From assembly GCA_964187785.1 (NCBI GenBank), contig OZ076409.1:21268001-21332000 (forward strand): a stretch of 64,000 bases of DNA, in the 5' to 3' direction. Position 1 is the first letter of the stretch; every line of letters starts with the position of its first letter. The notes below the pieces were generated by a model that saw nothing but the letters and a program-made list of their open reading frames with translations, ran no database searches and had not been told where the DNA came from. Shown here piece after piece: positions 1 through 38,265 of the stretch. The DNA comes from Amphiscolops sp. MND2022 (taxonomy: Eukaryota). The position numbers and the translations under genes are program-made.

Positions 1-874
1 TATATATTTTCAACACTTTCAACTAATATCATATTTCAACATATTTTCAACTAATAACAACTAGTTTTCAAATAGTTTTTTCTTTATCGAAAACATTATT
101 TTTCTTCCTTACATGCTGATGATACGTATGATACTAGTGGAGTCTCTCATAAATTTAGAAATGTTTTCAGGACAACCAAAGATTTTTTTTTGAATTTTTG
201 AATTACGTTTCGAGTTACTTGGTTTTTTCTCTGGAGTTAACGCTTTATCTCATAACGAGACAACCCGGTAAAATAGGTTTCAGGCACGCAGCTGTATGAT
301 CTCGGACATTTCAAAAAGTCTGTCGGAAGTTTGCAATTTGTTTTTTCTTCTTCTACCGTGACGGTCACTTCTGGTGGCTATCATAACTTTTGAAATTGTT
401 TTCATAATCATTAAGCCAGTATCATCGTTTTTGTGATTTGTTTCTGGTTTCTTGCTTAAACAGGTGTTGTATTTCAGATCGAAATGATACAAAAACCAAT
501 CATCACTCATGCTGGCATCAATTACGTGAAACTCATATTCCTGAACCTCTTGTTCCCGAATGTGTTCCTGCTGGAAAGCAATGACTGTCTTCTTCCCAAT
601 GATCGCAGGAAGGCTACAGATTTCCTCAAGAAGCATTTAAAAGGTTTATTTTCATTTATCAAAAACATACATACTACGTTTTGAACAATTACGTTTACGA
701 TCTCTAGTTAGTAACTAGAGATCGTAAACGTAATTGTCCAAAACGTGGTTGTGAGATGTAAGGAATGCACTTAAGCATAGCATTGTAGTTGATCGTTCGT
801 GGCACGTTTTGATTCATGATTGTTGCAGGACTGAACGTAAACTTCTCTGATGTATACAAGCCCCATGGATCCAG

Positions 875-1447
875 CAATTCCAATCTCTTTACCAGTTACT
901 TGATTTGCTTTGACAGAGAGAACTCAAAGATATTCCAAAGTGTAAAGATCTCTATGAGATTTATTACCAGTCAACTTTATGTCTTTTCGTTGATCGTGCG
1001 TTGACGCCATACAAATTGAAACTGGATATTTTACTCAGACTTTTTGAGAAGTGTGAGCTTCTGTCTCCATTTTATTACATGACAGAAGGAACTGAAAAAA
1101 GCCACCACACGGCAGCCAAAGACTACAATACGAAGACAATGCGTGATGGTGGCAATGATGCTTGGAACATGTCATCCAGTTATCTCGATATTCAGTTTTC
1201 CTTCTACCGTGCAATTGATTTATAATCTTCAAAGTCTTCGACACTTGAATCTTACCGGAAGTTGTATAGAAAAACCGACGTGACAAAGACGTATCTTGAA
1301 ATTTGCTGTGAACCCATTCCAGAACCGGAACTTGACTATCTTAGAACTGAAGACATGTTTAGAGGTATGCACTTTGTCATTCTTGGAACATATGGTCACC
1401 TGAAAGAAACTCAAGCGAGTCGTGAGAAGAAGATCACTGGAAATGGA
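875..1447 (+). repeat. 573-bp copy of 3335-3907 inserted into the transposase 5' exon
   Basis: Appears base-identical to 3335-3907 (offset 2460), including both nonsense codons. Confidence 0.95.
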
Positions 1448-3814
1448 CGTATTCAATTTATTGATAATATCTGCACCTCCATCATTGATTCCCTGGACGA
1501 CTGAAAGAGTTGGCTATTTACGACAATTTTTCCCTTCGTTGCCCATTCCAGGCTCAACCTCTTTTTTAACAATTGACACTATTTTTTCACAACAGTCATT
1601 GGAAACAGGCGTTTCGCTGCAGAATTTTTGGAGCTCTTCTTTGAAGACTATATCAGAATTAGAAATTGCATTGGGTCATTTTATTGAAATTCTCAAGCAG
1701 TTTTTCACAAGTCAAACTTTGAAAATCAAGAAAAAAAACACCTTAGTTCATAAACTTCTTCATTTATTTCTGCCAAACTTGTTTTGCCTTCAAAGGGAAG
1801 ATATTCAAATGGAGATTCAATGCCTACTTACTCTCAGTAATCCTCAGGATCTTTTAGTCAAAATACGTCGACTTATACAATGCCCTTTCATCAAATCCAC
1901 CATTCTCCCTTCAAGACGTGAACTTCAAGCAATCACATACAAATTGAACGAAGATTTCAGATCAAAACTTACTCCCAGAAGAACCCCCACTAGGTTCCGT
2001 GTTAATCTTGTTACTTTTGTCAGATTCGTTGCCTGCAATTTGTATAACAAGACCAGCTTAGACGGCTTGGGAGTCGACATTTATTGGTGATGCAATGTCT
2101 CGGGGGAAAAAGACGTCGTACGAATGGCCTTCCGAATTTTGCAAAGCGGCATCGAAACTGAGCAATCCTCAACCCATGTCTTCACGTTTGCTGTGTTTGA
2201 GGTGAGTCGTTCAATTTTTAATCTGAAAATTCGGAACTTGATTTCTTTTGTGAGCTACATCAAAATGTTTATTGAGAACCTAATTTTGGTCCCTGTTGTG
2301 AGCTACACTTAATAGTTTAGTGGTAACGCAAATCTAAATTTGGTCCCTGTCGTGAGTTACACTTAAATGATTACTAAGTTGTTGGAAAACCAATTTGGTC
2401 CGTCTTGAGCAGCACTCAAATGTTTTGTTGATATAATTCTAAATTTTTCCCTGTTGTGAGAAACTGGAAGTTGAAATATGAAATTTTGGAATGTTTCCCA
2501 GGGTAAAGATGCGCGAATTAACCTGGAATACAATCTCGCCATGTCAGAAGTGTTTGGACGCCCTGGATGGCTATACAACGAAACAAAGGCCTTGCATGAT
2601 GAAGGTGCTATACTGAGTTGTTCGGGTGATTCACCATTCCAACTGCGTGTTTTAAAAGGTGTTAGCAGTGATGTCTCTTGTCTGTCAAAGATGTGTCTTT
2701 ATGTCAGTGATCCTGCAGATATTTCGAATCCACCACTGAAACAGACAAAAAAAGACACCGCTGAATATAAGAGAGAAATGGAAGGAAGGGGGGTGATTCT
2801 TCCGTCAACTGTCGATTATGCTACTGGCCGAAGAACAGAACTGATCATTGACATCAACGAATGCATCCCAAAAGACTCTCTCATTTTTCTTAAATCCACT
2901 TTCAATACATGGCCTGATTTGCTGCATATGGTTGTCCGTTCAGTCGAAAGTGACTTGAAGTTGCATGTGGACTCGATGTTGCTGTTGAAAGACCAAGCAG
3001 CAATATGTAGACTCGAATGTAACATAACGGAACGGAACGAAATGTGAAACCGCCGAGATTCAAGTTGGAGATCGTTGAAAAACTCTGCAAGGCTGTATCT
3101 CTCAGTTTCAGAGACGCCGAAGTCATAATATCCGACTGCAACAGAATCAGCGACTGCGGCCGATTAGACAGCCCAATTTTTGAAGGTGTGTTTTCATTCG
3201 AAACACCTCATGTCTACAAAGCTGACCAAACAACCTCTACAACGTCTTATAACGTATTGATATCATTGGTTGATGGGTTGGAGACATCTTTCACAAAAGG
3301 AGTGGGTATTTCTGTTCGGAAACTGGCTGACCTCCAATTCCAATCTCTTTACCAGTTACTTGATTTGCTTTGACAGAGAGAACTCAAAGATATTCCAAAG
3401 TGTAAAGATCTCTATGAGATTTATTACCAGTCAACTTTATGTCTTTTCGTTGATCGTGCGTTGACGCCATACAAATTGAAACTGGATATTTTACTCAGAC
3501 TTTTTGAGAAGTGTGAGCTTCTGTCTCCATTTTATTACATGACAGAAGGAACTGAAAAAAGCCACCACACGGCAGCCAAAGACTACAATACGAAGACAAT
3601 GCGTGATGGTGGCAATGATGCTTGGAACATGTCATCCAGTTATCTCGATATTCAGTTTTCCTTCTACCGTGCAATTGATTTATAATCTTCAAAGTCTTCG
3701 ACACTTGAATCTTACCGGAAGTTGTATAGAAAAACCGACGTGACAAAGACGTATCTTGAAATTTGCTGTGAACCCATTCCAGAACCGGAACTTGACTATC
3801 TTAGAACTGAAGAC

Positions 3815-4147
3815 ATGTTTAGAGGTATGCACTTTGTCATTCTTGGAACATATGGTCACCTGAAAGAAACTCAAGCGAGTCGTGAGAAGAAGATCACTGG
3901 AAATGGAGGAAATGTTGTTTCCAATGTAGACATCATCAACAGAAGCAAGCTGAATTTTTTGAGTTATCACTATTGCATTTTACCAAATCGAAATTGTATC
4001 GACGCATTCATTAAAGGTCAACAAGGTAAAGAAAAAGCTGCAACGAAGGCGCTTTCCAATACGATACTCAGTAACTGGATTTACTTGAACGCTGAATTTG
4101 TAATCGCCTGTGTACAGAAGAAGTCCTTGATTGATCCCAAAGATTAT
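3815..4147 (+). CDS. BRCT domain, in frame with the transposase C-terminus
   Basis: MFRGMHFVILG...KKITGNGGNVV...HYCIL...LNAEFVIACVQKKSLIDPKDY matches the BRCT pattern F-x-G-x-x-F...I-x3-GG-x-V...thli...(W/F)-x3-C...Y. Confidence 0.7.
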
Positions 4148-4484
4148 GTTTTTGAAGTAGATGAGTCTGCGAGAGCCAAATTCAAAACGATGAAGTACAT
4201 ATCTATGGCCCCACAATTACAACGTCAATCAAACCCCCTACGACATGGTTCATTAACTTACCACACAGCAATGCGGAAGTACAAGAACGCACTAAAAAGG
4301 CCACCTTGAAGAGAAAACTAGACGACGTTTAATATCTGAAAATTTACTTATTTTATTACTAATTCAGTAAACAAGGTCCCTTTGACCGCTTCATTATCAA
4401 TTCAGTGCATATCTAAAAACTTACTTATTTTATCAGATAAGGTCCCTTTGACCGCTTCATTCTCAATTCAGTGCTATCTACTTG

Positions 4485-7400
4485 ATGAACCAAAGAAAAC
4501 GGCTGCGGCCAGATCATTTTCGCCAAAAAACTGCTGAAAAAGCACTACATTACAAAGTATTGTAAGGAGCAGCAAAAACGGAAAGCAGAAGGTCTCCCTA
4601 CCCGAATGTACCAGTACGGTTAGTCATTACAATGTATGTTAAAAATTGATCGACTTGTAACATTTTGAAAAGTCCAGTTTATCATGCCCGAAACGATAAG
4701 GGAAACTCAATGATTTTGAAAAAAAGTCTAGGTCTCAAACAAAAAGTGTGTTTTCATTCATGTTACTTCTATGTTACAGCAGCTGCAAAAGGCTTGACGC
4801 GGAGGCCTAACTTATGCTACGGCAGAGGTTGTGGAAAGTCATATGTTTACCCTTATGACTTGCGCGTGCACCTTTTGAAGAATCCTCAATGCCAGGAAGG
4901 AGCGAATGTGAGTGCCTGTCCTATTTTTTCCTCTTTAAGAACACATGTTGAATAATTTGATTGACCATTTGATTCTCGAAACGCCGTGTTTTACACGGTG
5001 ACAATGTGGCTGGAACTCCGAATGAGTCATATTATCGTGGCAACTGCTTAGGCTGCAGTTTCTTTGGGCTCCGATTCGTCTAGCAACGCTGACGAAATAT
5101 TCAGGCCAGAAGATTTCAACCACATTCCTTCTGATGTGTTTGGATCTGATTAATTTTTCAAGTTTGCGATGGAAGTTCCCCTCGACTACAAGTTTCCTGT
5201 AGCTCAATTTGAAGGCAACGTTGACGACCATGTCGTCAAATTCAATTCCCTGATGAGACACAGTGTGCCTCTGTTGTGGCGTGGAGGTGTCAACCATTGC
5301 CATGGTTTGAAGCTGCCTCAAGTGGAAGAACTCGCTTTCACTGAAGTTGTCCAAGAGCTTCTAGTCCCCCAGAAGCTACAAGCAAGTGCAGCAACCATCA
5401 ATGTCAAGTCGGCAAAAATTGGAGAAGTAAGTCTTTGGTAGAATTACTTTCAATTTGAAGCTTGTATTTTTCGTAAAATATCTGGAACAACTGCAATTTG
5501 ATCCCTGTCGTGAGCTCATTTTCCAACTTGGACAAGTCTTTGGTAGAATTACTTTGAATTTGAAGCTTGTATTTTTCGTAAAATATCTGGAACAACTGCA
5601 ATTTGATCCCTGTCGTGAGCTCATTTTCCAACTTGGACAAGTTGAACTTGTCGAACAAATGCATTTGAACTATTCTAACGAGCAGAAAGTTGTCCGTCTT
5701 ATTCCCGTCTTAGTCACTTTATGATCATTTCATTTCGGAGTCGTGACCTCAGTCTCGACGATTTCAAGCAGGAGCTCATCAACGCCGACAGAAGCAGCGT
5801 TTACTATCCTTTAAACGCTACAGACATCGCCATGCAGCCAAAGGTAAACAACATTGAATGAGCTCCTTTGATGGAAAACGCAAATCCACTGAAAAACGAC
5901 TTTTCCTTTTCTGTTTTTCACCAACCCCCTGTTTACTAGTAGTTGCGTACAAATTGGACATTGAGGATTTTGTTCAACATAATGCACATTGTTTTGAAAG
6001 AACTTCATCTTATATTGATTTTTTTGTCTTTTCAGTCCATCTACAGCGTGCCAACGATGATAAAAAAGTCGTCAGTGAACCACCTTGTGGACGAGCTGGT
6101 CAGTAAGTCAGCAGAACCGTTCTCAGTAGCGACTTCATACTACTTGCTGATCTCCAACGATGGTTGTCAAACAACTTGGCACACGGACTTCAGTTCAACA
6201 TCTGTCTTTTATACAGTCTTGACTGGGTCCAAGACCTTCTTTCCGGTTGCGCCAACTGAAAACAACATGAAGTTGTTCAATGCCTGGTCCAAACAAGAAT
6301 CCGACGACATGTGAGTTGAATTTTTTCACCAAGGAGTTTCAGCTTTTCTGTTCATCTATTTTTCTATTTTTTGCATCATTTTGCATCACGGGCCATCATT
6401 TTCGTACGTGTTTTCATTGAATTTGCGAAATTTTCAACTTTCAATGCACTATATTGTTTTTGCATTGCCGAAAATTTTAAGAATAGTTGCTTAGAGTTCC
6501 AACAGTTTTCGTTTTAGGCCAACATTTTTTAGATGCCACAAAAGACTGGAGGGGGGTTGCCTCAGGGTTATTCTTAATCCGGGCGACGTTTTCGCCATGC
6601 CGTCTCAGTACATCCATACAGTCCTCACAAGTGGAGACTCTGTGCCAGTACGGGCGAATTTCCTTTCAGAAGGTCATTCGAACCAGATCATGAAGGCGAT
6701 CATTGAAGAAGACTCCGTCAGGGAGCATGAGAAGTTTCCGGGCATGTTGGAAATGCTAGCTATTTTGATGCTCAAAGCATCAGAGAGATGCATGATAACT
6801 CCGGACTGACTTCCTTCGACTTCACAGGGTCATTGAGAATCGATATCAAGAAAGTGAAGCTGTTGCTGGGAGTTGTATTTTTTAGTTCACAATCGTTTCG
6901 AATCAAACTAAGTGATCGAATTAAGTATTTGTATAATGAAGCCGTGTTGTGACTCACAACAGGGATCAAAACTAAAATTGGTAATCATCAGGAATAATGT
7001 TGATGATGACGTTGTGGCTCACGACAGGGACCAAAATTAAAGGTGGTAATGATTACCAATTTTAATTTTGGTCCCTGTCGTGAGCCACAACGTTATCATC
7101 AACAATATTTGTTGATGATCAACAAAGTTGATCAAATAGCTTAGTGAGTTATCACGAGTTTTGTTTCAGATTTGCCCCGAATTCAGCAAGGAGAAACTCG
7201 TTTACAATATTTGCTCGCGCAAAGACTTCGTAAACGATGTTTGTGTCACCGCTTTCACGGAAACGGCCTCAAAAAAGGCATATCTTTTTTGCCCCAAGCC
7301 TTGCTTCAGAAGGAGGAACTGGTATACGAACGAGGACGGCGTGAAGGTCCACAAGGAAGCAATTTCTGAGGAGCGCCTCACTTTCTTGTGCCGAAGACCT

Positions 7401-7801
7401 GATGTTGACGAGCCGAATCGTGATGTTTTATTCAGCTATGAGGAAGCCATCACGTATGTTCACCCGCGACCGTCACAAACTGTCAGAGGTTTGCACAAAT
7501 TGCCGAAAAGAAAAACCCTCGTTCAAGACAGTGGTAAGTTTGCCTATTTTAGTTACATCCTGGTTGTTTCGTCTTAATATACATAGTGGTAATGTAAGTG
7601 ATAACATTCAACTCAAAACTGGTCACCTGGTTGAACATCCGTAAGGCTTACATTTGATTTTCTTATTTCCTAAAAAGACTTCAAAATGAAATTAATGGAG
7701 TTGTAATCGAATTCAATGTTTTTGTTTCAGAATTCAGACCATCTACTGATCGTTACGTTGCTTCGATCATGAGCCACCATGTCCCTGCATACAACTTGTA
7801 G
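4485..7801 (+). CDS. Spliced C2HC zinc-finger + JmjC (KDM2/KDM7-like) histone-demethylase-family gene, possibly damaged
   Basis: Exons ~4780-4907 (CYGRGCGKSYVYPYDLRVHLLKNPQC), 5163-5426, ~5740-5843, 6036-6310 (YLLISNDGCQTTWHTDFSSTSVFYTVLTGSKTFFPVAPTENN) and 6533-~6806 (LNPGDVFAMPSQYIHTVLTSGDSVPVRANFL); probable further exons 7170-7533 and 7731-7801. The Fe(II) triad H-x-D (6180-6188) and H (6615-6617) is present. The start codon and the TGA at 6807-6809 are uncertain. Confidence 0.8.
5429..5641 (+). repeat. 105-bp tandem duplication in a JmjC intron; each unit carries the 20-bp motif
   Basis: Two near-identical units beginning AAGTCTTTGGTAGAATTAC. Confidence 0.9.
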
Positions 7802-7969
7802 TTGCGTACAGACTGAGTTGTGCTTAAGAAGTTCTTGATCATTGTTAACTTAACATGTTGAACTTTCTTGTCTCCGAGTTATTTGTTGTGCTCAGTAAAT
7901 TGTACACTGTGGCTCGGTATAAACTTGTAGATTGAAAAACTGCTCTGGTTTTTTCGAATGACCGTCAAC

Positions 7970-8393
7970 CAGGGGTGTTAAATATTACATTGCAATACTA
8001 TTGCAATACTAATAAAACAATCTTTTGTTATTCTGAATTTTGTTGAAACAATAATTGCAATTATTGTGTCTATGAAAAAGATTGTTTGAAAAACCAATCA
8101 AATCAATTTGTTGATCAAATTAACATCCAAAAATTGTTCGTTGATCATTAGAAATGATTGGCATTCGAGATGCAAGGGCAGTTTTTTTTTGCGATTTTGA
8201 TATACAAAGTATTTATTAGTTTGACTGAAATGTCCGCCAAATTGGAAGTAGATGGTACCCAACGCATGTCTCCGAATTCTTTCCTTATTGTGAAAAATCA
8301 TCAATGTATTGTATTTGATAACGTTCTGGAAATAATTATTGTATACAATTTTATTGCAATTATTGTGACCTAGAATTATTTTTAACACCCCTG
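7970..8393. mobile_element. hAT-type MITE
   Basis: TIR CAGGGGTGTTAAA / TTTAACACCCCTG; 8-bp TSD CCGTCAAC at 7962-7969 and 8394-8401. Confidence 0.9.
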
Positions 8394-8684
8394 CCGTCAA
8401 CAACCGGTATTTTTTGTTCATAGCAAAATCAGCAAAACATTCAGCAAATTATTACGGCAAAGTCCAATTACCTCATAGTCTAGTTAAAATTTTTATTTTA
8501 ACTAATAATTTCATGGTAAAAAAAATTGTTGTTGACCATTATTCAATTATTAGGTTACTATTCATTCAATAAGTTAATGTGTACAATTTACCTTCGATTT
8601 ATAGTGCATTCAAAGTTTGTACAGCCTTGATCGTTTGTAAGTTTGCAACGTTCTGAGTTGTATCAACTGTGTTTTGGACAATTA

Positions 8685-8830
8685 CTGTCGGAAATGTCGA
8701 GTAGTTGTTCCCAAAAAAAGAGGGACATCTACCGTCAGAAATATCGGGTGGTTGTTTCCAAAAAAGAGGGACATTTACCGTCAGAAATATCGGGTGGTTG
8801 TTTCCAAAAAAATTATCAAATACCGTCAAA
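8685..8830 (+). repeat. Tandem repeat, ~46-bp unit, about 3 copies
   Basis: Recurring TACCGTCAGAAATATCGGGTGGTTGTTTCCAAAAAA. Confidence 0.8.
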
Positions 8831-9774
8831 ATCAATCATTGATGGCCGCCGGAAATCATCGGGTCATCGGAAGGGAGTTTCCAATTAACTTCGCCTTTGT
8901 GCTCCCTTGCATCGTATGTTTTCTCTTTCAGTACAAGCCGAGTATGAATAACAGAAGCAAAAGTCTCATTGTTAAGGAGAAAAACAGTGTTTAAGGTTGT
9001 TTAAGAATAGAAAAACGGCCAAAAGTCCCAATTCAGATTCAGTTGTCTGTAACTTTTTCAGTTTTCGTCTGAAGAATTTCAAAGTTAAATTAATGTAAAC
9101 TAGAAGAAAATTTGAGAATAGTTTCCTTCTGACAATTTTACAAATTTTCAATCGATTCCGAAAAAATCGAGCCTGAAAAAGCTCGGGGGATGTTTCCCTA
9201 ATCACAGTACTAGAGCTCTCAACCAATGAAATGAACATGTGGGCCTCAATTAGCCAATGATATCTATTCGTTCGTTTCGCCGGCGGCTGCTGTTTTTCAA
9301 AAGTTGATAAAAGTACTTCAAGTTGACTCAAGTTTGTTATGTTTGCTATAGACCAAGACTCAAGTTATTTCAATTATTCTTGACTCAGCAGCTCGGAGAA
9401 GCAACATGAATACAGGTACCTTTTGATCCCTGTCGTGAGCAAATATAAAACAGAGTTGCTAAACCAAATTTTAAGTTAAGTACCAGCTCTGAGAATCTGT
9501 ACCTGTTGTCAACTACAGTATCCTTCTTTTCTTACGATGTGTTTTCAGAAAGAAAACAACTTTCATTGAATATTGTATTTTGAATACAAAAATAGCACCA
9601 GTTTTATAATGGAATTTATGAACATTATAAAATCACAAAAAAATAATTGAAAATAAAAAACTTATCTCTTGTAGAGCAAATAAATAATGAGTTTTGAAAC
9701 TTTAAAGTTTCAAAAATAGTGGAAAAGTCGTTGAAATCATTTCAACGAAACTTTGAGTCCTTCGGGTTCAGACA

Positions 9775-10112
9775 TTATTTTAGCCTGAGCAGGCATCCTT
9801 GTTTCCTGCAGAGTGGGCACTTCACCCAAAGGGCACGATGAGTGCTTCCCCTGTGAATTTCAGGAATACAGGAATGCAAAAATGTAAAGGACACGCCTCA
9901 AAAAATTGATCAGTGAAAATTATCAGAAAGAAAAAGTGAAAACAGCTTCAATAACAGTTTTTCAAAGCAAAGTTCTGTGAAACTTACCTCTCAAGCACTT
10001 TGATCCAGGCTTGACGGCACTGATTGCATATCGCGTGTTTATCATCGAGAATCCAAATACGCGAAAAAATCTTCTCTCCACAGACAGCGCAAAGCATTTC
10101 CAGTTGGTTCAT
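9775..10112 (-). CDS. Two-exon 66-aa RING-HC-like finger protein
   Basis: Exon 1 10112-9988, GTAAGT..CAG intron, exon 2 9850-9775, giving MNQLEMLCAVCGEKIFSRIWILDDKHAICNQCRQAWIKVLERGSTHRALWVKCPLCRKQGCLLRLK*. Not in the supplied ORF track. Confidence 0.75.
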
Positions 10113-11367
10113 GTGTTTCAGGTGGTCAATAAGTACAATGATTTTTAAAAAGATATATCAGTCTTGTCACACGGTTGTTTGGAGATAGAATGGCCAACAA
10201 TCGGCCCGGGACATATAGAACACATCGTACGAAAGATTTGAACTTTATTTTGTCAGTATCTTGTTTCTATGTACGAACAACTTGCTTTGTTTCATGACTT
10301 GACAACTTGCAATTCCTTTTAATCTTTTCACTAAGCAACCACCTAGTTAATATATAACCTCTGTACCTGTAACAAATAAACGTCTCCACTTATTATTTGG
10401 TTTAGTAAACCAACGCGGTACTGCGGTAGTGCCACTTTCATTCAATTCAAAATAAGATGATAATCAAGATGATTCTTTCATATCAGTTATTATGTCGATA
10501 TAATTGTATTTGTACTTTGCGACCCTGTAGTACCACCTACTAATGTTAGTCAGAAGATTAAGTGTTTTTTCATGAAGTAAAATACTTTGTTCACATGAAA
10601 AGTTTCAATGGTTTCAAAAAATGAAATAAATAATACTTTACAGAATTGAATGACGTACATATGTATGTTTACAAAGTTTATGGAATTAACAAAGTTCATT
10701 CATTTATTACTACTAAAAAAATTAATAACGTACATATGTGGTTTTGATCCCTGTCGTGAGCAACATCAAGTTGTAACAAATAGTCTATACGAATCCGAAA
10801 CTCTGTTTGAGTCTAAAACTCTCTATCAATCTGAAAATCTGAAATGTATATTACCAAATCTCCAAGTACTTAAACGATTATTTAATTACCACTGCAGTAA
10901 ATTTAGAATTGAGGCGTGTTTAATAAAGACAACTGCCAGTGAAGGTGCCACAAGGCTGTTCAGTGAAGGTGTGTCGAAAACTGCTGAGAAGTCCTTACAC
11001 GATTAACTAATTACCACTGCAGGAAAGGGTAGATTTGAGGCATTTCAATTATGACTATTCAAATTTTGTCGATAACCGCAGCAAAGTCCTTACACGATTA
11101 ACTAATTACAATTACGAATTGAGGCTTTCTAATAATGACTTCTGAATTTCTGTCGAAAACTGAAAAGTCGATTCAGTCAAACCTTTTGCATCGATAGTGT
11201 CAACTTGCTTTCAATTCTATTAATATTGTCAACCTTTTTCTTTCGCAATCATCAACTTCTGTTCATCTTAATTTTATAATCAACTTCTGAACTTGTCAAA
11301 AATTTTTGACGAAAAGTAAAATCAGTCAATCAGATTATTCTTTCTCTCGCAATCATCAATATCTATC

Positions 11368-11805
11368 ATGTTCGATCCCGCAGCAATGACAATCAGGTCG
11401 TGTATTCGTCCAATAGATGAACTGATCTCAAACTGTGGACCACCACACAGAAAAAACGTGCGTTTTGCGGACTCAACCACTGTGATGACCAATCAACTTG
11501 AAACATCTCCGACACATCCGAGAGCTTGGAGGATCAAAAGAAGCGCACCTATTCCTGACAACCCACTCCCGCACCCACTCCCAACAACTCCACCCACTCT
11601 AATCTCCGGGAACAAAAAAACAGTAGTTCCGGGAACAAAAACAGTGAGGTTCCCTTTCATAGAAAGAGCTATATCACCGGATGGAGAAGTATCAGAGTCC
11701 GTCATTTCTTTAAAAGACTCGGAAACCAATCATTGTGATGAATACTGGAAACCTGGGGCTCTCGACGACAAGCCGTTTATAATGAACTGCCGAACAACAA
11801 GATAG
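11368..11805 (+). CDS. 145-aa Pro-rich ORF with two RVxF-like (PP1-docking) motifs
   Basis: Clean ATG-to-stop ORF in AT-rich surroundings; contains KNVRF and KTVRF, with RSCIR upstream. Confidence 0.45.
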   Translation: MFDPAAMTIRSCIRPIDELISNCGPPHRKNVRFADSTTVMTNQLETSPTHPRAWRIKRSAPIPDNPLPHPLPTTPPTLISGNKKTVVPGTKTVRFPFIERAISPDGEVSESVISLKDSETNHCDEYWKPGALDDKPFIMNCRTTR

Positions 11806-12510
11806 AATTTAAAGTTACTATTCTGCTCTTCTAGTACAGTTGTCACAACTGCACTAGAAGAGCAGAATAGTACAATAGTGTAAGAAATAAACTGAACCTT
11901 TTTTTGTAAGAAAAGAATTGGACCAAAACAAAACTTGCTCTGATTTTTGCTACCATCCAAGTTATTTTAAAATAAATTAAACAAACATTCTAGAGTTTTG
12001 TTGGGCACTTGAAATGTAGGTTTGCAAATAATGAAGAAACTTCCTAATTTAATTTTTCATTGATTGTATTTACTACTGAATGGGCATATGGGACATCATT
12101 TTGGACAATTTTGTAACATTTGCACTTAATTCGGAACTTTTGTTTATTTGGCAGGTACTTCTTCATTTACTAAAGCCATTCAACTATTTTACATCAAGAT
12201 AATTGCTATTATATAGTTCTGGAAAGGGGTTTTCTATTATTTAATTTCATTAACAATCTTAATACGTGGGAGAGAGCTATTTTTCGCAAAGATTGGGGAT
12301 TATGTTTTCGGTTATAGAATCTGCTAATTAAGGTGATTATACCCATTATCTTAGACATTCAATTGGTCCTTCCAGTCCCTTAATATCATGGCTAAAATAG
12401 AGAATGAACGAAATTCCCATGTAAAATGCTCTGTTTACATGCAGTCCAAACTATTTCTTACAAATAAGGGTTCAGTTCTTTTCTTACACTATTGTAACTT
12501 AAAATGTAAC

Positions 12511-13119
12511 CAGGGCTACCGAAAAAATAATGGATCAAACCATTATTTTTGATAAATAATTTGTTTCTAGTATATTTCCATTCAGATAATTTATTTCTGT
12601 CATTCGAAAAATACCACAATTTATTTCGGAATTTTCCATTATTTTAGAAATAAAATGAAGCTACAAAGCAAATAAAGGCAGACGCTACCGCCAAGGCAGC
12701 TTGCCGTAGGTAGGCTATTGTAAATTTCATTTCATTTTTATTCCATCAATTTCTAACATATGCGAACGGCTCTTTAGCCGTGCAAAACTGACCCAGGGAT
12801 ACTTGAGACATCAAAATATAGCATCAAAACATAGAGATATCAAAACAAAAATAAGCAAGCTTCAAGGTGCATTGTGGTCAAGCTATGATAGCTTGTCCCC
12901 AATGCACCTTGAAGCTTGCTTATTTTTGTTTATTAACAAAACTTTGTGGAATGTAAATGTTATTAATGAAGTAATAAATATGGCTGACAATTGAAATGGA
13001 TATAATTTATTTTTTTTTGCTGAGAAAATATAGTTATTCATGGGCATTAAATCTAAAATAAATCTATAAATTAAATAAAAAAATTGAAAAAAAACTAAAA
13101 TAAATTTTCGGTAGCCCTG
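12511..13119. mobile_element. hAT-type MITE
   Basis: TIR CAGGGCTACCGAAAA / TTTTCGGTAGCCCTG; 8-bp TSD AATGTAAC at 12503-12510 and 13120-13127. Confidence 0.9.
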
Positions 13120-13259
13120 AATGTAACATTGGTTCTAAATTCTGAATGTGGACGAAACAGTTTGGTTTCAGTATCTCAGTATCGGATGCGAATTTTACCT
13201 CCGGGGTAAAATTCGCATCCGATACTGAGATACTAAAGCCAAACTGTTTCGTCCAATCA

Positions 13260-13985
13260 GATTTTAGAACCAACCAACGAGTCGTCATCTGGAAGGACAA
13301 ATTTGATGATCAACTTGCAAAGCGAAAGAAAGATCGGTCGTCTCGATACGAACTTCTAGACCTATTACACAGTCTGAAATCCAACCTGTCAAACTTGAAA
13401 GCGAATGGTCAATGTGTGAACAACTTCTTGACTCAAGGACGAACTTGGTGGACGAAATTGAAGATCTTTCCTACCCACTTGAAAAAGGGATGGAGGAAAT
13501 TGAACCCTTGGTTTCGGCCCAGTTTAATGCCCAAAACTTCGCAACCCTCAGTGAGGAGAATTTGAAGCAAGAACAAAACAAATGCCTGGAACTTCAAGAA
13601 GGGGTTCAAGCTCAGAGAATCTCAATTGGCAAGTTACAGAAGAATATGTTGATGATTGAGGCCTTTTACAAAACCATTCAAAACTCACAGATTCAGAACA
13701 GCACCCAAGATAACGAATCAGTGGCTAGTTTGAGCGACCGCGTGATCGGAATCATGAACAGATACAACGCCATTTCTTCCAACGTGGAGGAAAGACCGCA
13801 ACAACTGTATTTCGACATAGAGGAGTCCTTACAGGTATTGAGATTGTGATTGTTATGTATCCGAAGAAACTGAAAGAACAGCTGAAGAATCTATCGCAAG
13901 TTAGAACAAATCTGGAGGACACCGGTGCCGAAATTGACAAGATCAAGGCCAACGCTGAGCAAATGTTGAAGAGTAATCCTCACAA
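13260..13985 (+). pseudogene. Frameshifted spectrin-repeat (spectraplakin/dystrophin-like) gene fragment
   Basis: Helical heptads LKQEQNKCLELQEGVQAQRISIGKL, LSDRVIGIMNRYNAISSNVEER and PKKLKEQL..RTNLEDTGAEIDKIKANAEQML are typical of spectrin repeats; split over three frames. Confidence 0.55.
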
Positions 13986-14762
13986 TCGAATTTATTATTT
14001 CAGAACAATATATTGTCAATTCATGATATTATTCATTTATTCAATAAAAAATTAATTGATATTTATTGATATTATTCAATGAAAAATTATTAACGTACAT
14101 ATGTGGTTTTGATCCCTGTCGTGAGCAACATCCAGAAAAGTTGTAATAAATAGTCTATACGAAGTTGAAACTTTATCAAACCGAAAACAGTAGTTTATGG
14201 AATACCGATCTTGAATTATTGAACTAAAAACGAAGTTTGGACCATGTGCCTTATCCTCCCTCAGATAAATACTGTTTCTTATCCAACAATACCCCCCCAC
14301 CAAGTCTTCCCAAACAAATGAAAGTAGGTCTCATAATGAAGGGGCGATTGCTTCATTGAACTTGGTAATTTTGGTCCCTGTCGTGAGCACTTCCTGTAGT
14401 CAGATTTACTGTTTATGCGATTTGATACTGTGTATGCGAATCAAGCAGTGTAGTTTTGAGTCGGCGTGTGTAGCTCACCAGTAACAACCCGTAATTACCA
14501 GAACTATGTGTAAATATGAGATGCACAGTGTAGTTAGTCAAATTGCCTAAACTAGTCATATGGTGTAAACTAGTCATTTACTGTACTGTCCAATGGTGTA
14601 AACTAGTCAACGTACGAAGCTGTGTCACATAGTGTAACGTCCTATCAATGCGCGTAATGTGTGACAAGTGTAAAACTTCCAAAAAAAATATTCGCGCTCT
14701 GATTTGACAAAAATCGAACTAGCAGGATTCTGCTAGTTCGTACCGGCATGTGTATCGTAATG

Positions 14763-15694
14763 TTCCCATACATACTCAATGGGCGACAAATCAGGCGAAG
14801 TTGGTGGCCAGGGAAGGGTGCGTATATCGTTTTGTGCCAAAATTTGGTTGGTGATATCAGCAGAATGCGGAGACGCATTATCCTGTTGGAAGATCCAAAC
14901 TTCTGGGTAGGACTGCAAGAACGGAACTACTTCGGGCACTAGGACTACGTCAGTGTATCGTTGAGCGGTTATTGGACCTTCTACAAAAACTAAATTGGTA
15001 CGGTAGTTGTGAGAAATTCCAGCCCAAACCGTTATTCCCCCGATATTTCAGCGATCAAAGTGCAGTTAATTTTTTTTGCATATCGGGTTTTGGGTTGACG
15101 ATAGATTTTGATCCGACCATCATGCTTGTGCAAGCAAAACCTACTCTCATCTGACCATAAGATTTGTTTCCATTGTTGATTCCACCTTCTAGTTTTGTCT
15201 GCAAAAATGCATCGCATTTTTTGTTTTGTTGACTGATTACAGGCACTTTGTGGGGTTTTCTGCATTGTAGACCATATTTTTTGAGTATTCTGCCAACAGT
15301 AAACCTGCATACGGCCCATTGGTTGCCGGACTCAACCGCTGTCGAAAATGGGTTTTCTTTATGGTTTCTAACAATTTGTCTTTCGCTTCGCACTAAGAAC
15401 ATCTTTGGTCGTCCCGGTCTGTGCCCATCTCGAACTGATCCAGTTTATAAATAGCGCTCCCAAGTGTTCTTAACTGTTCGTTATTGATATCCGTATTTGG
15501 TAGCAACTTGGTCAGAAGTTGCACCAAACTTAATTGCACTGATCAATTCGCTTCTTTTTTCACACAAGAAACTGCAACCTCAAAACGTGATAAAGTATTT
15601 GAATTGAATTGGTGGCGTGAATAGTTTAGTTTTTCAGCTTCTGTTCTAGCCTTTTCAAAACTTTGCTCAAAGCGCATATTTATGCTCACCACTG
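14763..15694 (-). mobile_element. Degenerate Tc1 element, 3'-truncated
   Basis: TA+CAGTGGTGAGCATAAA end at 15694; WSDESRF, FQQDNASPH and WPPTSPDLSPIEYVW motifs in broken frames. Confidence 0.85.
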
Positions 15695-15944
15695 TAAGGT
15701 ATAGTACTTAAGCGTCTTTCTCTGTCTCTCTCTACAAGGATTGTGGCTGGTATGGGGTTTTCTTTAGTTGCGGACCACGGATGTGTGTTTTTTCCCCTAA
15801 CATGATGACAGTCATTCCTACACCGAAAGGTGCTCGTGCATGGCAATGTCATCGGAATCGTATGACTGGGATCTGAGTCCGAAATTGACCTGGGATCTGA
15901 GCCCAAAGATCACGAAATGACAAAGTTCGAAAGTTCATAACGCT

Positions 15945-16310
15945 CATGAAGGCAAGTTTGGGTCTCAATGGCTCAACGTGGTTCCTTGCATGAACCTAGG
16001 ACTGAAACTTGATGATCAGCAACTTCGAATTTCAATTGGTTTGCGCCTCGGTGCCAACATCTGCGTTGAGCATACGTGCCACTGTGGTAAAAGGGTTGAA
16101 CGGGACGGTTTACACGGTCTTTCTTGCACCAAGAGTGCTGGTCGCTTCTCACGTCATGCTACTCTCAATTCTCTCATAAAGCAGACGTTGGAAGTCTCGA
16201 CTTGCCTTCAATGCTCGAACCACGTGGACTCTACCGAACTCATGGCAAACGCCCGGACGGTGTTACCATGTTTCCTTGGTAATTGGGTAAACAGCTGTTG
16301 TGGGATGTGG
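15945..16310 (+). pseudogene. Fragment of an RLE-type (CRE/NeSL-like) non-LTR retrotransposon C-terminus; second copy at 18815-19185
   Basis: WLNVVP..LRLG..CHCG..DGLHGLSC..RFSRHATLN (CCHC finger and RH motif) followed by EPRGL..GKRPDG..PW..WDV in a shifted frame. Confidence 0.75.
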
Positions 16311-17063
16311 GGCAGGGAAATTTCGTCACCAGCCATTTGGGCGACAAAAATTTCTACCCAATTCGGCGACAATAATGTCGCTCAAATGTCCCGTCAATTT
16401 TGTGCCCTAAATGCCGATGCGAAGCGAAGTGGAGCGACGTGCAATATGGCCTTGTGTAACGTCAGGCAAGGACGTTGCAGAAATTTTTGAATATTTCGAT
16501 CAAAAATTCGAAATGTGCGGTATCAAACAAGCACATTCAACATGGCCGACCCGGCAGGTACGAAAATCGTAGAGGAAGCAAAATTAAGGCAAAACACCAC
16601 CCAGAAGACCCCAGCCCCGACCCAGGAACGTGAAAGTCAGCGATGTCATCACCCAGAAGGCGAGAAAATCAGGAATTGTGCCATCTGACAGCAAAAAGAC
16701 AAGGTGTCGGCAGAAAAGTGCCAAATGAGACCAATGTGCCCCGAAGATGAGGAAAGTTGCCGGAAGCCAAACTGACGATCAACCCTGAACTGTAATGTTA
16801 TTGGGGCTTATCCTAGTGATTTATTACCGTTTACGGAGTGTTTGGATGATATTTGATCTACTAGATCTGTATTTTAGAACTTATTCTCCAAATACAATGT
16901 ATTTCAGTTAGACACCTTTTTAGACCTCGGAAGTATGTAGCAGGTGGCAGGAATGTATGTCAGTAACCTAGGATACGTTTTTACAGACTTGTGGGGCGTT
17001 TCCGGACTTTGAGAGTGCCGGCACGTCGCCTCGGAGCTCTAACTAGAGAAGCCTCCTTAGACG

Positions 17064-17623
17064 GGTAAATGGTCACTTGGCTTAATGCCATTTGGCTTAA
17101 AGTCATTTGGCTTAATACAATTGGTCACTTCGCTTGGTTTTTTTATGCTAAGTGTCTCGGGTATTGGTCACTTGGCTTAAAGTCATTTGACTTAAAACCA
17201 CTTAGTTGAAAACACGTGGCAGATTTTGTTGAATTTATCTTTATAATGTAGTCAGTGTATTATTATAACGTTTATCAAGTACCCCTCGGATATGTCCCCA
17301 TTTCCTCTTGTGCCCTGCGGCCCCTTGGGGCCGCTTATATTCCCATCTTATTAAGCGAGGTCAAGCAGGAGCAAAGACTTAGCGGGAACGAAGATCGTGT
17401 AGCGATCGTAGTGGGAGCTGGTCTTTGCGACGGTGAGGGCGAGCGTGCATACACCGCATATGTTCCTCATTATGATATTTCCGGGAGTTGACATATTTAT
17501 TCCTTGAGTTGAAATGGAGTTGGCCTAAATTTGTGGTCACTTGGCTTAAAATTTTTTAAGTCAAATGACTCGACGAAAAAATTAAGCCGAATGGTATTAA
17601 GCCAAGTGACTGGAAGCCAAGCC
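17064..17623. mobile_element. GG..CC-terminal MITE (MuDR-like); second copy at 19955-20508
   Basis: Inverted ends GTCACTTGGCTTAA / TTAAGCCAAGTGAC; TSD CTTAGACG on both sides. Confidence 0.75.
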
Positions 17624-18564
17624 CTTAGACGATAGAAAAGCCCATTTGGAGACCATTTTGGGATCAAAAACTAGTGTCTAGGGATGTAGTAAGACAACGG
17701 TCTCCTGTTTAAGCATCCTAAGCCTTGTCCCTCTTCCAAGATGTACGCAAAAAATTGAAGGGGGACCCTTTAGGGAAAAAAATTTCAGAAAAAAGTCTCG
17801 CAGTGCCGATAAAAATGAAATGGGGGATCCTTTGGTCTCGCCCGGTATGGTATGTTACGCGGAAAAACAGGAAAAACCTTTTTGGTTCAGTTTGCTAGGC
17901 CAAATAGTGCAATTTGATGCAATAATATTTTGTAGAACAATTTTGGTCAGTTCGTGTGGATAGAAAATGTCTCTATAATAGTCGCGTTTCACTTCATGAA
18001 GCGCCGACTAAAAATGGAACAAAATGGCAATAAAGTACCTAAATTTTTTTGCACATGACGAAGTCAATGTGCATTGCAGTCCAGCTAAGTAAGTTTTTTT
18101 TCCACTATAGTCAACTTCATTGGTCAACTTCCACAGTATTCTGCCAACAGTAAACTTGCATACGGCCCATTGGTTGCCGGACTCAACCGCTGTCGAAAAT
18201 GGGTTTTCTTTATGGTTTCTAACAATTTGTCTTCCGCTTCGCACTAAGAACATCTTTGGTCGTCCCGGTCTGTGACTATCTCGAACTGATCCAGTTGATA
18301 AATAGCGCTCCCAAGTGTTCTTAACTGTTCGTTATTGATATCCGTATTTGGTAGAAACTTGGTGAGAAGTTGCACTAAACTTAATTGCACTGATCAATTC
18401 GCTTCTTTTTTCACACAAGAAACTGCAACCTCAAAACGTGATAAAGTATTTGAATTGAATTGGTGGCGTGAATAGTTTAGTTTTTCAGCTTCTGTTCTAG
18501 CCTCTTCAAAACGTTGCTCAAAGCGCATATTTATGCTCACCACTGTAAGGTATAGTACTTAAGC

Positions 18565-18606
<42 letters not shown>

Positions 18607-21048
18607 AAGGATTGTGGCTGGTATGGGGTTTTCTTTAGTTGCGGACCACGGATGTGTGTTTTTCCCCTAACATGATGACAGTCATTCCTACACCGAAAGG
18701 TGCTCGTGCATGGCAATGTCATCGGAATCGTATGACTGGGATCTGAGTCCGAAATTGACCTGGGATCTGAGGCCAAAGATCACGAAATGACAAAGTTCGA
18801 TAGTTCTTAACGCTCATGGAGGCAAGTTTGGGTCTCAATGGCTCAACGTGGTTCCTTGCATGAACCTAGGACTGAAACTTGATGATCAGCAACTTCGAAT
18901 TTCAATTGGTTTGCGCCTCGGTGCCAACATCTGCGTTGAGCATACGTGCCACTGTGGTAAAAGAGTTGAACGGGACGGTTTACACGGTCTTTCTTGCACC
19001 AAGAGTGCTGGTCGCTTCTCACGTCATGCTACTCTCAATTCTCTCATAAAGCAGACGTTGGAACTCTCGACTTCGACTTGCCTTCAATGCTCGAACCACG
19101 TGGACTCTACTGAACTAATGGCAAACGCCCAGACGGTGTTACCATGTTTCCTTGGTAATTGGGTAAACAGCTGTTGTGGGATGTGGGGCAGGGACATTTC
19201 GTCACCAGATATTTGGGCAACAAAAATTTCTGCCCAATTCGGCGACAATTATGTCGCCCAAATGTCCCGTCAATTTTGTTCACATAGCCCTAGTGCCCTA
19301 AATGCAGATGCGAAGCGAAGTGGAGCGACTTGCAATATGGCCTTGTGTAACGTCAGGCAAGGACGTTGCAGAAATTTTTGAATATTTCGATCAAAAATTC
19401 GAAATGTGCGGTATCAAACAAGCACATTCAACATGGCCGACCCGGCAGGTACGAAACCCGTAGAGGAAGCAAAATAAAGGCAAAACACCACCCAGAAGAC
19501 CCCAGCCCCGACCCAGGAACGTGAAAGTCAGCGACGTCATCACCCAGAAGGCGAGAAAATCAGGAATTGTGCCATCTGACAGCAAAAAGACAAGGTTTCG
19601 GCAGAAAAGTGCCAAATGAGACCAATGTGCCCCGAAGATGAGGAAAGATGCCGGAGGCCAAACTGACAATCAACCCTGAACTGTAATGTTATTGGGGCTT
19701 ATCCTCGTGCTTTATTACCGTTTACGGAGTATTTGGATGATATTTGATCTACTAGATCTGTATTTTAGAACTTATTCTCCACATACAATGTATTTCAGTT
19801 AGACACCTTTTTAGACCTCGGAAGTATGTAGCAGGTGGCAGGAATGTATGTCAGTAACCTAGGATACGTTTTTACAGACTTGTGGGGCGTGTCCGGACTT
19901 TGAGAGTGCCGGCACGTCGCCTCGGAGCTCTAACTAGAGAAGCCTCCTTAGACGGGTAAATGGTCACTTGGCTTAATGTCATTTGGCTTAAAGTCATTTG
20001 GCTTAATACAATTGGTCACTTCGCTTGGTTTTTTTATGCTAAGTGTCTCGGGTATTGGTCACTTGGCTTAAAGTCATTTGACTTAAAACCACTTAGTTGA
20101 AAACACGTGGCAGATTTTGTTGAATTTATCTTTATAATGTAGTCAGCGTATTATTATAACGTTTATCAAGTACCCCTCGGATATGTCCCCATTTCCTCTT
20201 GTGCCCTGCGGCGCCTTGGGGCCGCTTATATTCCCATCTTGCTAAGCGAGGTCAAGCAGGAGCAAAGAGTTAGCGGGAACGAAGATCGCGAAGCGATCGT
20301 AGTGGGAGCTGGTCTTTGCGACGGTGAGGGCGAGCGTGCATACACCGCATATGTCCCTCATTATGATTTTTCCGGGAGTTGACATATTTATTCCTTGAGT
20401 TGAAATGGAGTCGGCCTAATTTTTTGGTCACTTGGCTTAAAATTTTTAAGTCAAATGACTCGACGAATAAATTAAGCCAAATGGTATTAAGCCAAGTGAC
20501 TGGTAACCCTTAGACGATAGAAAAGCCCATTTTGAGACCATTTTGGGATCAAAAACTAGTGTCTAGGGATGTAGTAAGACAACGGTCTCCTGTTTAAGCA
20601 TCCTAAGCATTGTCCCTCTTCCAAGATGTTCGCAAAAAATTGAAGGGGGACCCTTTAGGGAAAAAAATTCGAAAAAAAGTCTCGCAGTGCCGAAAAAAAT
20701 GAAATGGGGGACCCTTTGGTCTCGCCCGGTATGATATGTTACGCGGAAAAACAGGAAAAACCTTTTTGGTTCAGTTCGCTAGGCCAAATAGTGCAATTTG
20801 GTGCAATAATATTTTGTAGAACAATTTTGGTCAGTTCGTGTGGATAGAAAAAAGTCTCTATAATAGTCGCGTTTCACTTCATGAAGCGCCGACTAAAAAT
20901 GGAATAAAATGACAATAAAGTACCTATTTTGTTTTTGCACATGACGAAGTCAATGTGCATTGCAGTCCAGCTAAGTAAGTTTTTTTTCCACTATAGTCAA
21001 CTTCATAGGTCAACTTCCACTATAGTCAACTTTAGATAAAAGCCAAAA

Positions 21049-24100: not shown

Positions 24101-24726
24101 TACTGCGAGTTTATGCAGACGAGCTCGTTCTCTGTCAGCCAATCCAGAAGCTCTAGGCCTTGTGCGTTGGATGATCGTAGGCCAAAACGGTTTTCTTCCG
24201 CAATGTGGGCGTTGAAATCGCCGCCCATCAGGAAGAATTTTCCATTTCCGTGTGTCGTCATTATTCTTTCTACTCCACTTCTCAGATTCTCCAGATCTTT
24301 CTCATAGTTTTCCGATCCAGCCACTGGTTGGTAAACTGATAGAATTAACGAGTGTTCTAATTTTATCCCTGTGACTCTTTCTGTCGCGAACCATTTGCGA
24401 CCCTGGGATTCCCATAAGGCGTACATTTGTTCAGACAGGAGTACTGCCGTTTTTTGGGAGTAGATCAGGTAAGAGATCTTTTTCTCGTGTTGGTACGAGC
24501 GTATCCCTTTGTCGCGTGTGTTCAGTTCACTCAGGAGAGTGATGCTCCATTTCTCTTCCATGCATCTTTTGACTTGTTCTCCGAATCTGCTACCGAACAG
24601 GTTCGCCCTGTTCACATTCCAGGTGGCTATTTTTATCTCTGTTCCCTCTAGTTGGTTTATTAAGGAAATCTTTCGCTTCTCTCTCTTTATTTCTCTTCGT
24701 TGTTTCCTTCTACAGCTCGTGTGTCC

Positions 24727-24750
24727 CGGCCCTGGATTGCTTTCAATGTC
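24727..24750 (-). other. 2A-like ribosome-skipping motif DIESNPG/P
   Basis: ALETDIESNPGP lies in the LINE ORF just upstream of the APE domain and matches D(V/I)ExNPGP. Confidence 0.8.
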
Positions 24751-24917
24751 TGTTTCCAGAGCAGAACATTTGTAAACCCTCTGATGTGTTCGGTTGACAA
24801 ACGTTGCCGATGGGTTCGCCTGTTTTCTTTTTGAAGAGGTGGACTGGTCGGCTAATCCAGCTACCCTCTGTTCCGGATAGGCTCTTCCAGTTAGTACCTG
24901 GTATGTGCCCCCCAGCC

Positions 24918-24986
24918 TGAAATTCTTTTTGTCGTCAGAGACGTCCACTAGGCACCATGCGAGGAGGTTGAATTTCATCGCCCAGC
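24918..24986 (-). ncRNA. HDV-like self-cleaving ribozyme at the LINE 5' end
   Basis: P1 GCUGGGC/GCCUAGU (G1-U wobble); P2 UGAAAUUC/GAAUUUCA; P3 ACC/GGU; L3 UCCUCGCAU; P1.1 GG; P4 CGUC/GACG; J4/2 CAAAA. G1 is the first base inside the TSD. Confidence 0.9.
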
Positions 24987-36790: not shown

Positions 36791-36791
36791 T

Positions 36792-38239: not shown

Positions 38240-38265
38240 TGTCCAAGTCTTCCGCAGTTTAATTC

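Follow-up and report, generated by a model that had tools for sequence, protein, structure and literature searches.

A giant DNA transposon of Amphiscolops sp. MND2022 with a RAG1-like transposase fold and a putative self-targeted chromatin toolkit

The 64,000-nucleotide stretch of Amphiscolops sp. MND2022 DNA analysed here (contig OZ076409.1, forward-strand positions 21,268,001 to 21,332,000; hereafter the window) opens with the right half of a decayed copy of a recently active cut-and-paste DNA transposon of about 27.6 kb, an identification of positions 1-14,762 that is next to certain. The element encodes a transposase with a predicted RAG1/Transib-like fold alongside SET methyltransferase-like and JmjC demethylase-like genes, and a short motif private to its family is dispersed through its non-coding DNA. 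On balance, these features suggest an undescribed lineage of RAG1-fold giant transposons that carries a chromatin toolkit directed at its own copies. That the lineage lacks a description is quite probable for the literature searched, where the hits listed included no element with this transposase or gene set; Repbase, Dfam and paper supplements lay outside the search, and one review (PMC6431247) contains no occurrence of CMC, Transib, JmjC, Chapaev or Mirage.

Copies elsewhere in the genome delimit the mobile unit. When the same genome (1.07 Gb) was searched with part of transposase exon 2, 829 candidates were obtained; among the 150 that were scored, 100 matches besides the window have 94-96% identity over 178-179 of 181 residues, and for 73 of these the enclosing open frame is 617 codons long, with no stop listed. 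A JmjC exon is located about 4 kb downstream of the transposase match, on the same strand, at 29 of 29 loci (L002-L030). Six young copies, referred to as family A, were fetched with 50 kb around each; all six share the same ends, between which they align at 98.9-100% per block and are over 99% identical across their whole length; their flanks are unrelated to one another, and four have a full length of 27.6-27.9 kb, the other two being longer through insertions. A unit with inverted termini and 2-bp target-site duplications (TSDs) moves as one piece. This recurrence of the genes at unrelated loci, with shared ends and a TSD, bears out a first-pass annotation, made from the letters of the window, that had proposed one multi-gene mobile element.

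The element terminates in the inverted repeats CATTACGATACAC and GTGTATCGTAATG, and a search of the genome for a 22-base terminal pattern finds it 627 times without mismatch, some of these being inner copies of the left end. A 2-bp TSD accompanies 21 of 25 distinct family-A end pairs (5/7 + 6/7 + 10/11, one duplicate pair dropped), the dinucleotide being variable (aa, ca, ag, ct, tt, gt, at, cc, ga, ta, tg, cg), and a 5-bp TSD accompanies none of the 25. The left end of the window copy lies 26,440 bases left of the window, at G000:C1:21241560, and its right terminal inverted repeat (TIR) occupies positions 14741-14762 on the minus strand, with 13 bp perfect, and 22 bp with 2 mismatches, to the left end. 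The TSD tt follows at 14763-14764 (plus strand), and the same two bases precede the left end. The first-pass annotation had closed the element at 14762, which is exactly the last base of this repeat. Leftward of the window the element runs for a further 26.4 kb, carrying a SET gene and a recombinase-like exon; the half within the window (1-14,762, plus strand) is 85-98%, mostly about 95%, identical to young copies.

Family-A ends also bound deletion derivatives of 0.37-3.4 kb as well as 7.6-kb and 12.2-kb elements with unrelated interiors, and the transposase appears to mobilise foreign DNA in multiple copies. The 12.2-kb elements form a non-autonomous family with the ends of the element, 2-bp TSDs and about 10.7 kb of unrelated interior (G000:C1:71175020-71187264, loci L097 and L098, with same-length copies at C1:41309799, C1:74708302, C1:83465845 and C2:28737634); the interior of the 7.6-kb element (L102) differs from that of this family too. 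An exon of the 12.2-kb derivative was read by eye as a C-type lectin and rejected as such, Pfam giving no family. Candidate transposase sites, predicted from sequence, are the subterminal YAGTCA hexamers, located at 14397-14609 (plus strand) in the window, with five in the last 400 bases and seven in the first 400 of a young copy. Young copies (e.g., L081 and L095) carry an inner copy of the left terminus, about 92 bp long and with a constant flank, in the interval that separates the recombinase-like exon from the SET exon, about 9,860 bases from the left end; it is not in the window copy, and several inner terminus copies are found in the related family C. A direct repeat of about 195 bp that starts at the motif is located near both ends (window 14108 onward; young copy 720-915 and 26953-27150).

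The transposase is encoded by two exons on the plus strand. In the window, the probable start of exon 1 (816-874) is separated by a duplicated block from the remainder of the exon (1445-2201), which contains the region of the first catalytic Asp near 2076-2090, frameshifted here. A predicted intron (2202-2501), placed by its GT..AG ends and homolog alignment, holds three copies of the motif and leads into exon 2 (2502-4309), with the second Asp at 2622-2639, a D-x-x-H at 2910-2927, the Glu motif at 3542-3568 and a C-terminal BRCT domain at about 3812-4150. A word-based search returned 22 relatives of the transposase, and a seven-sequence profile returned 500 representatives at E 0.001, of which 156 also pass 1e-30. 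The 150 top-ranking profile matches, which were those listed, are all unnamed, and ten relatives that were looked up come from ENA, Logan or JGI and are called 'hypothetical protein' at most. In a 67-row alignment, the catalytic columns hold the two Asp in 33/33 and 51/51 rows, the D-x-x-H in 54/54 and 55/55, and two Glu in 48/49 and 48/48; the triad is also present in a young element copy. None of the 67 family members matches a transposase or RAG1 family of Pfam at E 0.1, and the family profile finds no RAG1 or Transib chain among PDB sequences at E 10, only fold comparison finding them.

The protein folded was a homolog, P0026, modelled with the 67-row alignment at a predicted local distance difference test (pLDDT) score of 92 and 31% identical to the exon-2 protein of the element. 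With P0026, every Foldseek row to E 2e-4 is RAG1, BbRAG1L or HzTransib (HzTransib at E 1e-6), followed by Hermes at 0.016. A wide structure search gave RAG1 at Z 16.9 (419 aligned, root-mean-square deviation 4.5), BbRAG1L at 16.6, HzTransib at 11.6, the P element at 10.3 and Hermes at 7.3, and residues 562-701 matched many BRCT domains at Z 7-10.5; these matches argue for a RAG1-like fold and a real BRCT domain. As a lead only, ESM Atlas gave scores of 0.78-0.81 to RAG1 clusters and to unnamed clusters of eukaryotes, among which Cnidaria was the commonest phylum. Pfam BRCT_2 is matched in the window at E 5e-4 and by 19 of the 67 family members. The model and the alignment together show a transposase with a predicted RAG1/Transib-like RNase H fold that includes an insertion domain, an invariant D-D-E triad and a family-wide BRCT domain. 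The first-pass annotation had called this protein a RAG1/Transib-like transposase fused to BRCT; the fusion is upheld by BRCT_2 and by structural matches at Z of about 10, and the RAG1-like fold and D-D-E triad stand, but by the usual criteria the element is not a Transib or RAGL, given the 2-bp TSD, the CAT ends and the lack of zinc motifs.

The same annotation had regarded the BRCT domain as a DNA-damage phospho-reader. Phosphopeptide-binding BRCTs form a tandem repeat with a Ser/Thr-Gly pocket after strand 1. The BRCT here is single, and in 29 of 42 rows its conserved Gly follows L, I or V, while S/T is not one of the four residues most often found there; this hydrophobic residue at the pocket position and the lack of a tandem repeat leave the phospho-reader proposal unsupported.

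It is possible, if rather unlikely, that the transposase belongs to one of the CMCT lineages already named (Chapaev, Mirage, animal EnSpm or Transib) as a divergent member whose zinc motifs were lost; the family may then have an existing Repbase entry, and only the cargo would be new. CA..TG ends and a 2-bp TSD fit the description of CMCT in the consulted portion of PMC12730594, and Transib TSDs and TIRs can vary according to the consulted portion of bioRxiv 10.64898/2026.08.26.747230, so that the TSD alone cannot exclude Transib. In addition, no CACTA, Mirage or Chapaev structure occurs in the P0026 fold lists, and the rank of RAG1 in them therefore leaves RAG/Transib versus other CMCT lineages unsettled. 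Against such membership, none of 33 rows has C-x-x-C within 60 residues of the second Asp, and only four of the 33 have H(3-4)H among the 45 residues that precede the Glu, with no conserved pair; the Pfam and PDB sequence searches that returned no transposase, RAG1 or Transib match also speak against it. Transib in particular is disfavoured by the absence both of the zinc motifs and of similarity at the level of sequence.

The cargo of the intact element comprises, from left to right, orf248 and orf276 (minus strand), a further open reading frame (ORF), a recombinase-like exon and a SET exon, followed after the transposase by a zinc-finger/JmjC gene, orf145, a RING-like ORF, an RVxF ORF and coiled-coil-like ORFs. 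The exon models are predictions, in which the recombinase-like and SET exons probably constitute one spliced gene. The transposase, BRCT, zinc-finger/JmjC, RING-like and RVxF ORFs and the motif named in the first-pass annotation were all found in the window, with weak Pfam matches to BRCT, C2H2, JmjC and RING at the stated places. The JmjC gene, predicted to be multi-exon and KDM2/KDM7-like (4504-6882, plus strand; H-x-D at 6174-6191, distal His at 6609-6623), justifies the earlier reading: the JmjC exon of a young copy matches KDM2A, PHF8 and KDM7A at E 1e-9 to 1e-8, and the catalytic residues are intact, with the Fe ligands H-x-D...H and the 2-oxoglutarate Thr/Lys kept in family A and in a related family B (the exon with the distal His matches cupin/JmjC weakly). 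The SET domain matches Pfam at E 3e-10 and, as its best PDB matches, KMT5A/SETD8 at E 9e-7; in both families it has N-Y-R in place of N-H-S and F-D-Y in place of Y-D-Y. A Phe at the latter place is reported to turn SETD8 into a dimethylase.

The remaining ORFs are less well defined. The recombinase-like exon was modelled at pLDDT 53, with 8 of 50 fold rows being recombinases or topoisomerase IB (Z 3.1-4.3, 95-113 aligned residues) and ESM Atlas leads below 0.9; no recombinase catalytic set was seen in it by eye. A Pfam search of orf248 gave no family, and its 21 homologs are unnamed. The 145-codon orf145 (7140-7574, plus strand) is conserved at 28-33% identity between families A, B and C, in each of which it follows the JmjC gene. 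The RING gene of the first-pass annotation is present as a RING-like ORF of about 60 codons (9778-10097, minus strand; exons 9987-10097 and about 9778-9849), but its Sina_RING match (E 3e-4) is under the curated cut-off and its third zinc ligand is Asp. Likewise, the proposed PP1 motif corresponds to two RVxF consensus matches (11449-11466 and 11638-11652), kept in the window and young copies, in a proline/threonine-rich ORF (11368-11805, plus strand); as evidence of PP1 binding these sequence matches are weak, since one RVxF-like match is found in 32 of 109 ORFs of at least 100 codons, and two or more in 3 of 109, the RVxF ORF included. The coiled-coil-like ORFs, assigned by eye, are broken in the window (13237-14001, plus strand) and common to young copies. 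Significant tblastn matches to the RING, RVxF and coiled-coil ORFs are absent from the related families B, C and D, the exceptions being a short N-terminal segment from one of the coiled-coil ORFs and a single weak stretch resembling a RING exon, suggesting that the RING and RVxF ORFs are accessory.

Selection on the cargo is evident from comparison of family A with its relatives, in which the proportion of synonymous differences (pS) is 0.62-0.88 and that of non-synonymous differences (pN) 0.17-0.50 in 10 of 10 ORFs tested, synonymous sites being near saturation; this pattern indicates that the shared core cargo is under purifying selection. Among 16 element ORFs scanned for families, several of which match no family, none matches a kelch or PHD family, as a RAG2-like protein would. 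A viral or Polinton reading was rejected, as no relative was found in IMG/VR viral contigs and no capsid or polymerase gene was seen in the element.

Related families retain the core genes. Seven copies of a class of about 70% identity were fetched: two of family B bounded by TIRs, three family-C loci, one B-like copy and one rearranged, unassigned copy (C12b). The TIR-bounded copies of family B, of 26.4 and 25.0 kb, both have a 2-bp TSD and share the core genes of family A at 28-72% identity; in them the JmjC block has shifted to the left end, in inverted orientation. Gene order in family C is as in family A, and the termini of all three families start CATTACGATACA. Family D adjoins a family-B copy at G000:C1 ~50,887,900-50,904,300 (L153, L154, L175); its transposase is 29% identical, and SET, orf248 and JmjC homologs lie within 13 kb of it, along with a motif of its own.

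Of particular interest is the dispersed motif. In the window, the 18-base core of the family-A motif TTTGRTCCCTGTYGTGAG has 12 matches at no more than 3 mismatches, against 0.08 expected from shuffles, at 2285, 2339, 2443, 5497, 5602, 6953 (minus), 7018 (minus), 7067, 9422, 10743, 14108 and 14370; all lie within 2285-14387, in introns, intergenic and subterminal DNA, in agreement with the first-pass statement that a private motif stops near 14.4 kb. De novo word counts recover one dispersed motif of about 20 bp per family, namely TTTGRTCCCTGTYGTGAG in A, TTTGYTTACTGKCATGAT in B, TTTACGRACTGTSATGAG in C and TTTGGTATCCACCGTGAG in D, and the four can be aligned by eye. At no more than 2 mismatches, copies contain their own family's motif 21 times in A, 33, 32 and 4 times in B, 11, 24 and 10 times in C and 10 times in D, the sole cross-match being a single site of the D type in C12b. 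Each version is private to one family. The motif falls outside an approximate coding map in 24 of 24 cases in A and 33 of 33 in B, where the map covers 37% and 30% of the element, respectively; of the 2596 exact genome matches to the A motif, all 12 that were sampled beyond the window copy fall in DNA related to the element. A change of motif across a whole family would be explained most easily by a family-specific binding protein together with local duplication. The zinc-finger region (C2H2) of the JmjC protein is 45-53% identical between families, versus 68-72% for transposase exon 2.

These observations suggest a mechanism in which the transposase would bind the termini, excise the element and insert it with a 2-base stagger, the BRCT domain most likely binding DNA ends or repair factors at the excision site, although this last step is a guess. 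An element-encoded DNA-binding module is predicted to bind the motif of its own family, the best candidates being the C2H2 fingers fused to JmjC and the recombinase-like domain upstream of the SET domain. Binding may bring the JmjC demethylase (H3K9/H3K36-type by similarity), and likewise the SET methyltransferase (H4K20-type by similarity), to the promoters and introns of the element itself, where local rewriting of histone methylation would keep copies expressed against host silencing, as VANC does for VANDAL. Motif-directed chromatin control is judged from this analysis to have an even chance of being correct; the escape from silencing is inferred from it, and the family-specific motif adds support. 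A more far-reaching reading can be held only tentatively and is more doubtful than not: a zinc-free, BRCT-fused branch of the RAG1 fold at the level of a superfamily, whose writer and eraser are aimed at its own copies through a tag that co-evolves with an element-encoded reader in each family. If true, animals would have an equivalent of VANDAL/VANC that relies on genuine histone enzymes, and a single genome would supply four natural pairs of tag and reader.

Several points weigh against this interpretation. Four of the 25 family-A end pairs depart from a 2-bp TSD, one fitting 3 bp and three fitting none, and the fold is that of P0026 rather than of the element's own spliced protein. SET activity is uncertain because the domain has N-Y where KMT5A has N-H. 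KMT5A-type and KDM2-type marks are often repressive or mixed, and the cargo could therefore serve repair or self-restraint, not activation. For families B to D, the copies used to define the motif variants also served for counting them, and C12b contains no A, B or C motif. Finally, the cargo linkage comes entirely from one genome; 12 metagenome contigs (1.2-5.9 kb) gave no convincing cargo match.

For the motif itself, an alternative that is unlikely but deserves attention accepts the same element and regards the motif as a binding site at which a transpososome spanning the 28 kb is assembled by the transposase or an accessory protein, or as a plain promoter element; the cargo would then act globally, for example on germline chromatin or on repair in the host, and would not be steered by the motif. 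In its favour, families A and B have clusters of motif copies close to both ends, at least one copy is kept in 6 of 8 derivatives examined, and termini and motif both diverge between families. However, derivatives of 368 bp and 680 bp with clean 2-bp TSDs hold no motif, many copies are situated in transposase and JmjC introns far from the ends, and a separate subterminal hexamer is present.

It is very unlikely that the motif is the recombination site of the tyrosine-recombinase-like protein of the element, shuffling cassettes in the manner of an integron. The movement and inversion of the JmjC block between families A and B would fit such shuffling, as would the recombinases and topoisomerase IB among the fold rows, the left arms of two older derivatives that stop within about 10 bases after a motif, and a 1376-bp derivative that joins the two direct repeats of about 195 bp beginning at the motif, being the product expected from recombination between them. 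On the other side, 7 of 8 derivative junctions are away from the motif, the model is poor (Z no higher than 4.3) and the exon lacks a catalytic set visible by eye. Recombination sites of tyrosine recombinases typically have two inverted arms; the motif is asymmetric and without them. Least credible is a Pack-type origin in which the cargo consists of passively captured host fragments with no role: although the same ends carry unrelated interiors in the 12.2-kb and 7.6-kb elements, and the RING, RVxF and coiled-coil ORFs are without significant match in families B-D, this is largely refuted for the core genes, which are open and conserved at saturated synonymous divergence and linked to transposases from 29% to 70% identity.

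The window copy is considerably damaged, which corrects the first-pass annotation. Transposase exon 2, open in young copies, has stops at 3371 and 3683; frameshifts are found near 2084, 2107, 3026 and 4294, and about 0.8 kb is gone from the 5′ part of the JmjC gene. The block within exon 1 (875-1447, plus strand) is a 573-bp exact duplicate of 3335-3907, a rearrangement in the window copy only. Left of the window, a 9.5-kb insertion with long trinucleotide-repeat ends and ORFs of 597, 296 and 253 codons lies between SET and transposase (about -9,690 to -220), related sequence being inserted in the C4 copy, and the block orf276-orf153-recombinase-like-SET is tandemly duplicated (about -20,000 to -9,700). 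A long palindrome on two motif copies is located just 3′ of the JmjC gene (6998-7104), with four further palindromes at 672-750, 11814-11874, 12842-12932 and 13149-13255. Long near-perfect palindromes with 1-base loops between genes number eight in the young A copy, two to three in B and C copies and none in family D, with one in 66 kb of flanks. Rfam gave no matches in window 1-15000.

To the right of the element, window 14733-21020 contains Tc1/mariner fragments (DDE_3, HTH_Tnp_Tc3_2) and a tandem duplication of about 2.85 kb. Beyond these are a reverse transcriptase resembling that of a long interspersed nuclear element (21207-25290, minus strand; by eye from the translation), a unit labelled by eye as resembling a long terminal repeat retrotransposon (33660-47733), with 3.1-kb direct repeats at 97.4% identity, an uninterrupted 1403-codon ORF (56627-60835, plus strand) and a Tc1-like ORF (62365-63186, minus strand; by eye from the translation).

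How animal transposons escape chromatin silencing is largely open, the clearest sequence-specific case found in print being from plants, and near-identical copies with open frames, together with four differently tagged families, provide a direct test system. The transposase widens the structural family from which RAG1 arose by a version without zinc motifs and with a 2-bp stagger. Both an enzyme with a natural 28-kb cargo and sequence-targeted histone enzymes could be useful tools.

Among known systems, RAG1/RAG1L of RAGL elements (ProtoRAG; PDB 6dbi, 4wwx, 6b40) provides the best structural match over the catalytic core, at Z 16.6-16.9 across about 420 residues, and further likenesses are the D-D-E order with a conserved His between, the TIRs and the multi-gene organisation. 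As described in the consulted portions of PMC7204232 and PMC9435367, RAGL elements generate 5-bp TSDs and are marked by CAC termini, zinc motifs and RAG2L. In contrast, the transposase described here is 10-13% identical, lacks zinc motifs and ends in a BRCT domain, and the element has a 2-bp TSD and CAT ends, spans 28 kb with about ten genes and yielded no RAG2-like gene among the 16 ORFs scanned. Transib (HzTransib, PDB 6pqn/6pqx) shares the fold (Z 11.6; Foldseek E 1e-6) and cut-and-paste movement with TIRs; it is distinguished from the element by the latter's lack of C(2)C/H(3-4)H, its variable 2-bp TSD, its BRCT fusion and its large cargo.

Members of the CMCT clade (EnSpm/CACTA, Mirage, Chapaev, Plavaka, ESTA, Lanisha) resemble the element in their CA..TG termini and in a TSD within 2-5 bp. 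According to the consulted portion of Kojima 2025 (PMC12730594), all CMCT members have C(2)C/H(3-4)H zinc motifs in the interval from the second Asp to the Glu, and fungal members carry an epigenetic enzyme, TET/JBP; the element lacks those motifs and its cargo is SET and JmjC, not TET/JBP, and its TSD varies whereas that of ESTA is fixed as TA. SET genes are carried by other DNA transposons, HarbingerS and MuDR of the oomycete Phytophthora (cited in PMC12730594), which belong to other superfamilies and hosts and for which the consulted portion of that paper mentions no JmjC, BRCT or motif system. The VANDAL/VANC system of Arabidopsis has, like the element, a short motif that is specific to each family and changes from one related family to the next, repeated in non-coding DNA (introns included), mostly in one orientation and often in local tandem repeats; VANC targets are described as family-specific, non-coding, same-orientation motifs in the consulted portion of PMC5735166. 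VANDALs are Mutator-like and VANC acts on DNA methylation, whereas the element has a RAG1 fold and encodes recognisable histone enzymes, with motif binding a prediction only. Transposons with epigenetic cargo are already known; the element described here probably forms a lineage of its own.

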